Notes under the pieces: model-generated
The model's database searches: none
Told to the model about the DNA's origin: nothing
The model's input: the letters and a program-made list of their open reading frames with translations, nothing else
Made by a program: the position numbers and the translations under genes
Shown: piece by piece, positions 17,556 to 31,872 of the stretch
Layout of the letters: each line of letters starts with the position of its first letter
How positions within the stretch are numbered: position 1 is the stretch's first letter
Source: Labilithrix sp.
GTDB taxonomy: Bacteria > Myxococcota_A > Polyangia > Polyangiales > Polyangiaceae
Direction: 5' to 3'
Length of the DNA: 64,000 nucleotides
NCBI GenBank assembly: GCA_026128965.1
Contig: JAHCIY010000002.1
Location: forward strand, 1,448,108-1,512,107

Positions 17556-17874
17556 GCGTCCCCTCCAAGCGAAGAGGATGCCGACCCGATCTTCGATGAT
17601 TCCGCACTTTTACGCCCCTTCCCCCGTCACTCCACCGTTACAGTCCCCCACGCCCGATCCATCGGGTAGCATGTAAACATCTGTGTTTTATTGCTAAGAC
17701 CGCGGCGCCGCAGGCAGCTCGCGAAGCGGCCACGCCAACGGTTGCGAGCGCGAACCGGACCGCGCCCCAGGGGCCCCAGAGCCGGCCGCGCCCGCGGTTG
17801 CGAGCGCGCCCCGGGGCCCCAGAAGCGGCCGCTCCAGCGGTTGCGAAGCAACCCTCGCGCTCCGCGCGAGGGCC

Positions 17875-17970
17875 GTGTCTGGGGTGGGGGTGTCGGGGGC
17901 GAAGCCCCCGACGTTGAAAGAGTGTCTGGGGTGGGGGTGTCGGGGGCGAAGCCCCCGACGTTGAAAGCCT
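17875..17970 (-). terminator. Two tandem GC-rich UUCG-tetraloop hairpins immediately after the receiver-gene stop (candidate factor-independent terminator / RNA-stability element)
   Basis: Two ~48-bp direct copies. On the minus-strand RNA each reads GUCGGGGGC-UUCG-GCCCCCGAC followed by ACCCCCACCCC (C-rich, no U-tract). They lie directly after the stop of the 17969..18370 gene. Confidence 0.4.
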
Positions 17971-29175: not shown

Positions 29176-29814
29176 GTGGGCGTGATCGGGCGGCGATCGA
29201 ATCGGCCTCCTGCGCTCGTGGAGCCCACGGTGTGGAGCGCCGAGGCGCCGCGCGTGACGGCGGCGTGGATCTCGCGGCCGCGCGTCGGCGAGGTGGAGAG
29301 CGGCGACGATGTGATCGTGCTGGAGCGTCGCGACGCCGTGTTCCTCGTCGTCGTCGATGCGCTCGGGCATGGGCCGAACGCGGCGCGGGTCGCGCGGGCG
29401 GCGACGGAGTGGGTGCGCTCGACGACGGACGCGGCGACGGTGCTGGACATCTCCAATGGCCTCCATCGCGCGCTTCAGGGATCGCGCGGCGCGGCGGCGC
29501 TCGTGGTCGCGGCGTCCGCCGCCGGCGTGGAGGCATGCGGGGTCGGCAACGTCGATCTCCGCTCCGTCAGCGGGCGGCTCCCGTTCGTCCTTACGCCAGG
29601 TGTGCTCGGGGTGCGGCTGCGGAGCCCGCGATCGTGCCGCGTCGATGCGCCGGTCGCGGAGCGGTTCGTCATGTTTAGCGACGGAATCTCGGGGCGGTTC
29701 GACCTGAAAGCGCTCGCCGCCATGTCGCCCGGCGAAGCGGCGACGCACGTCTTCGCGAAGCATCGTCACTCGCACGACGACTCGACCGTCCTCGTCGCCG
29801 ACGTGGCGCTCTGA
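29176..29814 (+). CDS. PP2C/SpoIIE-type serine phosphatase (RsbX-like, no sensor domain)
   Basis: GDDVIVLERRDAVFLVVVDALGHGPNAA and the distal HDDSTVLVADV metal-binding Asp motifs typical of SpoIIE/RsbU-family phosphatases. The true start may lie downstream of 29176. Confidence 0.75.
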   Translation: MGVIGRRSNRPPALVEPTVWSAEAPRVTAAWISRPRVGEVESGDDVIVLERRDAVFLVVVDALGHGPNAARVARAATEWVRSTTDAATVLDISNGLHRALQGSRGAAALVVAASAAGVEACGVGNVDLRSVSGRLPFVLTPGVLGVRLRSPRSCRVDAPVAERFVMFSDGISGRFDLKALAAMSPGEAATHVFAKHRHSHDDSTVLVADVAL

Positions 29815-29841
29815 TTCGATCCGAGCAGAGGAGCGGAGAAG

Positions 29842-29909
29842 CCGAGCATGACCGCGAGCCGAGCATGACCGCGAGCCGAGCATGACCGCGAGCCGAGCAT
29901 GACCGCGCC
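29842..29909 (+). repeat. 17-bp x4 perfect tandem repeat (gccgagcatgaccgcga), each copy carrying an ATG; the last ATG is the start of the downstream gene
   Basis: ATGs at 29848, 29865, 29882 and 29899, exactly 17 nt apart. The first three are followed by an in-frame TGA (MTASRA*). The fourth opens the 157-aa ORF. Confidence 0.8.
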
Positions 29910-30372
29910 GCTGCCTGTCGCTTGCACCGTCGCCGACTTCGACGCCGTGCTCACCGCGCGCGCGCACGTGCGCTCGTTCGCGGGGGCGCTCGGGTTCGAT
30001 CGCGAGGTCGTGGAGGAGCTCGTCGTCGTCGTGTCGGAGCTCGCCTCGAACATCGTGAAGTACGGGCGGCGCGGTCGCATCGAGCTCACCGCGATCGATC
30101 GGCCGGAGGAAGGGATGCGCGGGATCGCGATCGCGGCCGAGGACGAGACCGCGCCCTTCGACCTCGCGGGGAGCCTCCGCGACGGCTACGACGCGCGCGG
30201 CAAGCTCGATCCCGCGAGCGTCTACGGCCGCGGCGGCATCGGCGCCGGGCTCGGCGCGGTCGCGCGCTTCAGCGACGGGCTCGATCTCGTCCCCCTCGCC
30301 GGCGGAGGAAAGCGCATCGTAGCGCGCCGCCTGCTCGGCCGGCCACGCCGCGGCTCGTCGCCGTCGTTCTGA
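29899..30372 (+). CDS. Anti-sigma-factor-type Ser/Thr protein kinase (HATPase_c_2; RsbW/RsbT/SpoIIAB-like)
   Basis: VVVVSELASNIVKYG (N-box-like E..NA..Y) and a Gly-rich ATP lid (GRGGIGAGLG). 157 aa. Confidence 0.8.
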   Translation: MTAPLPVACTVADFDAVLTARAHVRSFAGALGFDREVVEELVVVVSELASNIVKYGRRGRIELTAIDRPEEGMRGIAIAAEDETAPFDLAGSLRDGYDARGKLDPASVYGRGGIGAGLGAVARFSDGLDLVPLAGGGKRIVARRLLGRPRRGSSPSF

Positions 30373-30700
30373 AGCGGTCGCGCCGTCGCCGAAGGTGGCT
30401 GCAAGTTCGTCATCGCTCGGCCGACGGCGTCGCGGCTCGTAGCGCGCCGCCTGCTCAGCCGGCCAAGCCACGCGTCGTTCCGAAGCGGTGGCATCGCTCG
30501 TCGCGCTGCCGGTGCGGCCGCCGGCGGCTCGTCGCCATCGTCTGAAGGCGCGCCCCCGCCGCGTCGCGCGCCGCCGCCCGTCGCCTGCTCGGTACCGTCC
30601 GCGGCTCGTCGCGCTTGCTCGTCGGCTGCCGCTCGTCGCTGTAGTTGAAGCGGGTGCGTCGCGGCTCGTCGCGCGTCGTTCTGGAAGCGGTCGCGTCGCG
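30316..30700. repeat. Direct repeats duplicating the last ~55 bp of the upstream kinase gene, plus further partial copies
   Basis: gtagcgcgccgcctgctcggccggccacgccgcggctcgtcgccgtcgttctga (gene 3' end, 30316-30372) recurs at ~30437-30492 with few changes. Shorter ggcggctcgtcgc...gtcgttctg(a/g)aagcggtcgcg copies run to ~30700. Confidence 0.65.
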
Positions 30701-30727
30701 GCTTGTCGGCGATGGCGCGGGCTTGGG

Positions 30728-31369
30728 TCAGTCGTCGTCGGGGGAGAAGTAGCGGGTGATGTAGCGCTGGAGGGCGGTGCGCATCGTGCGGTGGGTGAGG
30801 ACGCCGCTGAGGTCGACGCCCATGTGGATGATGGTTTGCGCGATGGCCGGGTTGATGCCGGTGAGGAGGCACTCGGCGCCGAGGAGGCGGACCGCGCGTG
30901 CCATGCGGAGGAAGTGATCGGCGGTTCCGGTGTCCATGACCTGGATGCCGGTGATGTCGATGATCGCGCAGTCCGCTTTTTTCTCGACGATCGCGCTGAG
31001 GAGCGCCTCCGTCATCTCGGCGCTGCGGGTGCTGTCCAGCACGCCCACGACCGGGAGACAGAGGACGCCGGCCCAGACCTCGATGATCGGGGTCGACAGC
31101 TCGCGGATCGCCGCGCGCTGGATCTCGATCGTCGCGAGCTTCTCCTCGAGCTCCTTCTGGTACGTCGCGCTCCGCTCCTGCTCCTTCGCGAGCGAGCCGA
31201 TCATCTGGTTGATGCCCTCGTAGAGCGTCGAGAGCGGGTGGTTCTCGGGCAGGTTGCTCTTGAGGCGCGTCGAGTAATCACCGCTTCCCACGTCCGCGAC
31301 GACGATGAGGATGTCAGCGATTCGCTCGAGCATCAGCTCCGACAAGTTCTGGTCGACCGCCTCCGGCAT
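30728..31369 (-). CDS. STAS-domain protein with ~95-aa N-terminal coiled-coil extension (RsbR-like stressosome/partner-switching component)
   Basis: C-terminal STAS (SpoIIAA-like) fold: IIEVWAGVLCLPVVGVLDSTRSAEMTEALL....ADCAIIDITGIQVMDTGTADHFLR...LLGAECLLTGINPAIAQ. AAGGA 9 nt upstream of the ATG at 31369. Confidence 0.8.
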   Translation of the reverse strand: MPEAVDQNLSELMLERIADILIVVADVGSGDYSTRLKSNLPENHPLSTLYEGINQMIGSLAKEQERSATYQKELEEKLATIEIQRAAIRELSTPIIEVWAGVLCLPVVGVLDSTRSAEMTEALLSAIVEKKADCAIIDITGIQVMDTGTADHFLRMARAVRLLGAECLLTGINPAIAQTIIHMGVDLSGVLTHRTMRTALQRYITRYFSPDDD

Positions 31370-31437: not shown

Positions 31438-31872
31438 TCAGCGCGTCTCGCGCGGCGTTCGCGGCCGCGGCCGCTTGTTGGGGCCGCCCTTGGGCGCGTG
31501 CCCGTCGAGGCGGCCGATCCCGAGCGACTTGAACGCCGCCTCGAGCGTGAGCGCCGTCCGGACCACGCCCATGTCTATCCCCATCGTTTGGAGGGTGATC
31601 GCGACTTGCGCGTTCATCCCACAAATGATGCTGTCCGCGCCCATCAGCCGCGCGGAGGCGGCGAGGCGCGAGAGGACGGCGCAGAGGTGGCTGTCGACCA
31701 TCCAGATACCCGTGAGATCGATGATTAACCCTTCCGCCCCGGTATCCCGGATGGTGTCGAGCACCTGATCTACCAGCCGCTCGGCGATGTGGTCGCTCAC
31801 GTCCCCCTGGAGCGGGACGAGCACTTGGTTCCAGAGGTGGATCACCGGGAGGCGATCGAGGCTGTCCGTCAT
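31438..31872 (-). CDS. Single STAS-domain protein (RsbS/anti-sigma-factor-antagonist-like)
   Basis: Start at the internal ATG (MTDSLDRLPVIHLW). STAS signature VIHLWNQVLVPLQGDVSDHIAERL....LIIDLTGIWMVDSHLCAVLSRLA...GADSIICGMNAQVAITL. The longer track ORF upstream is Arg-rich and not protein-like. Confidence 0.8.
   Translation of the reverse strand: MTDSLDRLPVIHLWNQVLVPLQGDVSDHIAERLVDQVLDTIRDTGAEGLIIDLTGIWMVDSHLCAVLSRLAASARLMGADSIICGMNAQVAITLQTMGIDMGVVRTALTLEAAFKSLGIGRLDGHAPKGGPNKRPRPRTPRETR

Follow-up and report, generated by a model that had tools for sequence, protein, structure and literature searches.

A recent tandem duplication probably placed four copies of the start region at the beginning of an RsbT/RsbW-type kinase gene of Labilithrix sp.

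Results

Kinase gene and its neighbourhood

The window analysed in this study is a 64,000-nt stretch of contig JAHCIY010000002.1 of Labilithrix sp. (GC content, 70%). A gene for a 157-aa GHKL serine kinase (HATPase_c_2; RsbT/RsbW type) lies at 29899..30372 on the plus strand, with its start codon inside the last unit of a 17-bp tandem array. The product matched Pfam HATPase_c_2 (PF13581) with 38 bits against a cut-off of 27.4 (E = 1.9e-9), and its homologues are labelled RsbT or anti-sigma regulatory factor kinase by JGI. In an alignment of 28 homologues, the kinase start at the fourth ATG of the array (ATG4; MTAPLPVAC) coincided with their N-termini, M-[TS]-x-P-x-P-V-x-C. The N-box SNI-KYG and the G-rich stretch GGIGAGLG occupied invariant or near-invariant columns, and the kinase retained 49 of the 49 invariant columns, indicating that the gene is not decaying. 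No curated equivalog was found for the kinase, the NCBIfam model RsbA_anti_sig giving a partial match of 28 bits against a cut-off of 210, and a PDB sequence search returned no match at E ≤ 0.01.

Upstream on the same strand are a gene for a PP2C/SpoIIE-type, RsbX-like phosphatase (29176..29814, plus strand) and, before it, a 181-aa gene with no assigned function (28483-29031, plus strand). The phosphatase scored 25.2 bits with Pfam SpoIIE, barely over the cut-off of 25.0, and was 72-73% identical to syntenic 212-aa genes. Its stop lies 33 nt 5' of the first ATG of the array (ATG1) and 84 nt 5' of the kinase ATG. Two STAS genes on the minus strand are convergent with the kinase gene. One encodes a 213-aa RsbR-like STAS protein (30728..31369; Pfam STAS, E = 3.6e-13; 92% identity to relatives) and the other an RsbS-like single STAS-domain protein (31438..31872; Pfam STAS, E = 2.7e-10; 83-84% identity to relatives); they are followed by Hpt, CheB, response-regulator and more HATPase/SpoIIE genes. 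STAS partners and a PP2C phosphatase close to the kinase gene are what partner switching calls for, and this arrangement is conserved in relatives. The sequence-only reading, made earlier from the letters and their open reading frames, had called the gene a partner-switching kinase; the domain and the gene context uphold this name, which no curated equivalog or solved homologue backs.

The segment 28020-39600 of the window and the related loci L076, L081, L083, and L091 combine an RsbR/S/T/X-like module with Hpt, a CheB-type methylesterase, and single-domain response regulators. The same conserved signalling cluster also holds a second HATPase/SpoIIE pair and an Hpt-histidine kinase. This content suggests a stressosome wired to a two-component/chemotaxis-like output and not to a sigma factor.

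Structure of the 17-bp array

The array occupies 29840-29907 on the plus strand and consists of 4.00 copies of AGCCGAGCATGACCGCG with zero mismatches (Tandem Repeats Finder: period 17, 100% matches, score 136). In an exact-string search, copies began at 29840, 29857, 29874, and 29891, and the rest of the 64-kb window held no further copy of the unit but only chance 10-mers. One unit comprises 8 nt of leader, the ATG, and 6 nt downstream of it, and the four ATGs lie at 29848, 29865, 29882, and 29899. The perfect fourfold repeat and its ATGs spaced 17 nt apart had been recognized in the sequence-only reading, and both are confirmed here. The span of 29842-29909 assigned to it, and with it the phase of the unit, must be corrected by 1-2 nt: in that phase the final unit ends with C, not A, and the maximal perfect periodic span is 29840-29907.

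To judge whether such a repeat could occur by chance, perfect self-matches at a lag of 17 nt were scored in the window and in 100 first-order Markov simulations of it. The run in the array was 51 nt long, and the longest qualifying simulated run was 17 nt; the analytic expectation for a run of 51 nt was ~6e-21. The array is thus not a chance repeat. No microhomology was visible at the duplication boundaries, where 29839/29856 and 29891/29908 mismatch.

The copy number of the array is known from one contig of a metagenome-assembled genome (MAG), and the window is identical to JAHBWE010000008.1 (Labilithrix sp. GCA_019637155.1). De Bruijn assemblers may miscount short-period repeats that exceed k, so that the repeat could have been generated or miscounted during assembly and the true genome could have one unit or some other number. 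We consider such an artefact quite unlikely. The array of 68 nt is shorter than usual reads, comprises exactly 4.00 units, and is placed in the middle of a 436-kb contig between intact flanking ORFs. Older, diverged arrays of a like type, which are impossible as assembler stutter, are present on the same contig (see below). In addition, an identical 157-aa kinase is encoded in a second NCBI assembly (MCW5812993.1), a match at the protein level that does not show the copy number of the array.

Mini-ORFs and ribosome-binding site of the leader

Translation confirmed that each of the first three ATGs opens MTASRA followed by a stop and that the fourth opens the 157-aa kinase. The TGA of mini-ORF 1 (29848..29868, plus strand), at 29866-29868, overlaps the second ATG (ATG2, 29865) as ATGA. 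The stop of mini-ORF 2 (29865..29885, plus strand) overlaps the third ATG (ATG3, 29882) in the same way, and that of mini-ORF 3 (29882..29902, plus strand), at 29900-29902, overlaps the kinase ATG (29899). The leader therefore reads as three ATGA stop/start overlaps (29865-29868, 29882-29885, and 29899-29902), and this chaining results from a unit of 17 nt (3n-1) combined with the native start context ATGA (Met-Thr).

The Shine-Dalgarno-like sequence GGAGCGGAGA (29830..29839, plus strand) lies 8 nt 5' of ATG1 and outside the repeat, and is the sole strong ribosome-binding site of the leader. Predicted pairing with the 3' tail of 16S rRNA reached -10.8 kcal/mol in the 22 nt before ATG1, as against -3.5 kcal/mol for ATG2-4. 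Two features overlooked in the sequence-only reading are thus that the strong Shine-Dalgarno site serves ATG1 only and that every mini-ORF stop overlaps the next ATG. The description of the copy number as the number of decoy mini-ORFs that precede the kinase gene is structurally correct, and the ATGA overlaps mean that re-initiation would be possible, softening the effect of the decoys. The mini-ORFs and the kinase gene are co-directional and spaced as tightly as the NTGA arrangement under which termination-reinitiation is expected (PMC12548453). According to that review, no stop/start arrangement is more frequent in prokaryotes than NTGA (-4), and few couple translation more efficiently; a Shine-Dalgarno site boosts such coupling (PMC12548453). 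Several genes of the kinase operon apparently have no Shine-Dalgarno site; direct initiation at ATG4 may for this reason suffice, and the array would then be nearly neutral.

Since an ATG is part of every unit, the kinase gene stays in frame at any copy number, and an ON/OFF switch is structurally impossible; a graded translational effect alone is conceivable. Stop codons close all three frames within the array, and consequently the kinase ORF does not start 5' of the last unit. Reading of the array as an N-terminal extension of the kinase was rejected on the same ground (stops in 3/3 frames). ATG1 and ATG4 share a frame with one TGA between them, and rare UGA read-through could give a kinase extended by 17 aa.

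Short leader ORFs regulate many operons, and direct repeats of 17 bp are within the size range of iterons and operators. The MTASRA mini-ORFs could accordingly form a leader peptide or attenuator, or the repeats could be iteron-like protein-binding sites. A dedicated cis element of either kind is highly improbable, because the unit simply equals the gene's own start region and the array is missing from every relative (9 syntenic and 83 homologous loci, described below), so that the leader shows none of the conservation expected of such an element. The folding energy of the leader RNA was not significant (z = +0.97; 168 of 200 shuffles folded at least as well), no Rfam family matched the leader (one sub-threshold, unrelated match fell at 28698-28746), and no promoter- or terminator-like site was found within the array. 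An RNA structure or known RNA family in the leader was rejected on the basis of the z value and the Rfam result.

Comparison with related loci

To place the array in its phylogenetic context, we compared the locus with nine syntenic metagenome loci from activated sludge and other sources, which represent three distinct relatives of the kinase (76-80% aa identity). Gene order was the same in 9/9 loci: ABM, the 181-aa gene, phosphatase, kinase, two convergent STAS genes, Hpt, CheB, and response regulator. None of the nine carried the 17-bp repeat, and each had a single start codon. Tandem Repeats Finder likewise detected no start-codon tandem array between -200 and +60 nt around the homologous start at any of 83 homologous loci. 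The phosphatase and kinase genes are separated by +84 nt in the window, as against -4 to +14 nt in relatives: +14 nt with GGAG and a GTG start in L076-L080, -4 (GTGA overlap) in L081 and L082, and +10 nt in L083 and L084. Absence of the repeat from the 9 syntenic and 83 homologous loci indicates that the array is derived and lineage-specific. A recurrent trait of this kinase family was rejected for lack of the array at all 83 loci.

A search for contigs encoding the kinase, phosphatase or STAS protein returned the source contig alone, and a scan of genome contigs gave relatives at ≤74% identity. Metagenomes scanned with the right flank gave 0 matches; with the left flank (a 22-mer) they gave 6, all of them chance matches to unrelated sequence. 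At a locus with a distant Thermoanaerobaculia homologue (L052; 46% identity), an unrelated 12-bp array of 3.8 copies (TATTGCGGAAAG; 2954-2999) sits about 20-65 nt 5' of the kinase start.

Older arrays and expanded junctions nearby

The 17-bp array is one of several repeats built from gene ends in this region. Between the stop of the 181-aa gene and the phosphatase start is a degenerate tandem array of about 5.6 copies of a 28-bp unit (29013..29180, plus strand), the copies being 68-97% identical. Its first letters, ACGTGGGAGTGA, come from the end of the 181-aa gene and its last, ACGTGGGAGTGACGTGGGCGTGATC, from the phosphatase start; junction comparison showed that the array was built from the ancestral overlapping junction, which reads AC ATGGGAGTGA in relatives. 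The two genes overlap by 10 nt in relatives, whereas a gap of 144 nt separates them in the window. A perfect stretch of 2.2 copies (29037-29099) persists in the array, two units being still identical. The 28-bp unit is G-rich (GGGAGTGACGTGGGAGTGGGATGGGAAG).

On the other side of the kinase gene, local alignments identified at least three decayed copies of its last 40-75 nt, including the stop region, at 30437..30698 (plus strand); their scores of 68, 60, and 47 all exceeded the best of 200 shuffles (37). These copies make up the convergent kinase/STAS spacer, which measures 355 nt (30373-30727) in the window and -4 to +13 nt in relatives. Similarly, the STAS/STAS junction is +68 (+3 in relatives) and the CheB/response regulator junction +81 (0 to +32 in relatives), and the non-coding spacer 5' of the ABM gene (26467-28019) extends over 1.55 kb compared with 380 nt in L091. 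The sister arrays, only 68-97% identical, are older than the 17-bp array.

Overall, the syntenic segment is ~700 nt longer in the window, and tandem repeats make up 6.2% of it, compared with 1.0-1.6% in relatives. Farther downstream, the syntenic stretch of 33.9-39.5 kb (HATPase, SpoIIE, HATPase, the 131-aa gene, Hpt-histidine kinase, and two response regulators) has junctions as tight as those of L091, with the same overlaps and short gaps. A genome-wide loosening of gene junctions was rejected on this account. The expansions are local, being confined to 26.4-33.9 kb, that is, the stressosome-like module and its immediate neighbours, and a purely random genome-wide process does not account for this clustering.

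Repeats of other kinds were also seen. The 26467-28019 spacer holds nested tandem arrays with periods of 132, 67, 36, and 31 bp (27351-27712; TRF scores up to 380). At 26206-26343, CCCGTT-type 6/18-bp repeats are part of the coding sequence for the N-terminus of a putative lipoprotein of 596 aa (minus-strand gene, 24676-26466), where they give rise to an HGKGNG-like tract of low complexity (aa 42-87). The tract lies in the N-terminal portion left unaligned with a 559-aa orthologue, which itself aligns only from its residue 58, and it resembles an expansion of in-frame repeats within a protein. In the 360-nt spacer 17610-17968, two adjacent tandem duplications, 43 bp x2 (88%) and a perfect 47 bp x2, occupy 17761-17967, and each 47-bp unit contains a 9-bp GC hairpin (GTCGGGGGCGAAGCCCCCGAC, -19.7 kcal/mol). 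This array begins directly after the stop of a minus-strand response-regulator gene and represents another recent duplication beside a junction.

Discussion

Origin of the array

The array is probably real and the product of a very recent tandem duplication, specific to this lineage, in which the native junction of the phosphatase and kinase genes was copied; of the duplications across junctions in this stressosome-like operon, it would be the youngest. A replication-slippage scar had been the fallback of the sequence-only reading, and it is this suggestion that the data favour: the copies are identical, the array is absent from the 9 syntenic and 83 homologous loci, and the neighbouring arrays are older and decayed. 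Slippage is its most likely origin. Replication slippage or unequal exchange could have produced the duplication in as few as two steps (from 1 to 2 to 4 copies), the first copy keeping the upstream context and the last copy keeping the start codon joined to the ORF. The array is probably tolerated because both flanking ORFs survive and no protein is damaged.

Damage is smallest when a 3n-1 unit is combined with ATGA: of the other two classes of unit length, 3n would extend the N-terminus and 3n+1 would send ribosomes into the gene out of frame. The array fits such survivorship, as a single case.

As for translation, the strong Shine-Dalgarno site would load ribosomes on ATG1, 51 nt 5' of the true kinase start. 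The kinase start would then be reached by three successive termination-reinitiation steps at -4 ATGA overlaps with weak Shine-Dalgarno pairing, or else by weak, Shine-Dalgarno-independent initiation at ATG4. Judging from this layout, the array probably lowers translation of the kinase. The net effect would be less kinase output relative to the co-transcribed phosphatase, and at this lower kinase:phosphatase ratio the RsbR/RsbS-type partners would tend to be unphosphorylated.

Copy number as a possible means of tuning

At least two successive expansions at one site with no point mutation indicate that the 17-bp tract is locally mutable, and local mutability is a property that a tuning locus would also need. 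A contingency-locus-like tuner had been the preferred interpretation of the sequence-only reading. In a VNTR rheostat of this kind, slippage would alter the number of units, each of which would add one re-initiation step before the kinase, and subpopulations would differ heritably and reversibly in their kinase:phosphatase ratio and hence in the threshold of stress signalling. The four perfect copies make a mutable tract that has expanded at least twice, and with the Shine-Dalgarno site outside the repeat, the copy number sets both the distance from that site to the start codon and the count of mini-ORFs. The stoichiometry of RsbT and RsbX matters in the Bacillus paradigm, and the kinase here is a regulator; the neighbouring 28-bp array, too, has its recent perfect stretch.

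On balance, we regard a rheostat as unlikely. Because each unit has its own ATG, the tract is incapable of frameshift switching. It is missing from the relatives and the 83 homologous loci and is thus not a conserved regulatory design, and decay of the sister arrays implies that perfection is not selected for. A 17-bp unit in four copies is also expected to slip far less often than tracts of 1-8-nt units. The unit structure, the length of the unit, and the decay of the neighbouring arrays thus leave the contingency-like interpretation without positive support, and the array gives no evidence of a genetic switch.

A more elaborate version, which we think rather improbable, is a live VNTR in which each unit would be one -4 re-initiation step between a fixed Shine-Dalgarno site and the RsbT-like start, so that the kinase:phosphatase stoichiometry of a stressosome would be tuned heritably in a free-living, high-GC myxobacterium. 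As a part of it, the cluster of arrays derived from gene ends would mark a local process, possibly fork slippage driven by G-rich sequence or hairpins, and this process would turn overlapping, coupled junctions into spaced, independently tunable ones.

A recent duplication of the junction, the reading that we prefer, makes the array a natural example of how a tandem duplication that spans a start codon can persist, the last copy preserving the gene. Where the unit is 3n-1 and the start ATGA, surplus copies turn into mini-ORFs, chained by the -4 overlap through which bacteria couple translation. Taken with the older arrays nearby, the 17-bp array points to one route by which overlapping coupled genes may be separated and intergenic DNA may arise from gene ends. 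If the copy number proved to be variable and to set kinase output, VNTR-type tuning would be extended to a module for stress signalling in a bacterium that is high in GC and non-pathogenic.

Comparison with known systems

The putative stressosome module shares its gene content with the RsbR-RsbS-RsbT-RsbX stressosome of Bacillus subtilis, namely an HATPase_c_2 kinase, a PP2C phosphatase, an N-terminally extended STAS protein, and a short STAS protein. It differs in that the genes are in convergent order and do not form one operon and in that the neighbours are Hpt, CheB, and response-regulator genes and not sigma B.

Repeats have been described as indel hotspots that cause phase variation (PMC12721329, PMC5084427). 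Like the contingency loci of Neisseria, Haemophilus, and Campylobacter, the array is a perfect tandem tract positioned so that slippage at the gene's 5' end would change its expression. Classical contingency tracts, however, have many copies of 1-8-nt units, differ from cell to cell, and turn genes ON/OFF through frameshifts or altered promoter spacing, whereas the array has 4.0 copies of 17 nt, causes no frameshift, and belongs to a large, free-living, high-GC genome. The TAACTGA repeats of marine Beggiatoaceae are likewise intergenic tandem direct repeats, and a post-transcriptional role has been proposed for them (PMC4679880). The heptamer itself contains the stops TAA and TGA. TAACTGA recurs at 169 loci genome-wide, and it is not derived from a local start codon; in contrast, the 17-bp array is unique and local.

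The likeness to termination-reinitiation coupling resides in the three consecutive ATGA overlaps that lead from mini-ORF 1 to 2, to 3, and to the kinase gene. The ancestral phosphatase/kinase junction, as seen in L081, is itself a GTGA overlap. Known cases of coupling join two real genes, whereas the upstream partners here are 6-codon by-products of duplication with weak Shine-Dalgarno pairing, and their coupling is putative.

The closest functional analogue is the MIRU-VNTR of mycobacteria, in which tandem units also lie at a start codon within an operon. MIRUs are dispersed and apparently mobile elements found at many loci, with units of about 40-100 bp. In contrast, the array has a 17-bp unit that was duplicated locally from the start of the kinase gene itself and is present at one locus in the 64 kb; the metagenome matches of the 22-mer are unrelated to it. 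As in MIRUs, the array is placed between co-directional ORFs, the phosphatase stop (29814) and the kinase ATG (29899), and the mini-ORF of each unit (MTASRA and TGA) overlaps the next ORF by -4. A MIRU carries a small ORF in each unit that is coupled at -4 (NTGA), which, it is believed, allows the insertion to be kept while the downstream gene is hardly affected (PMC12548453).
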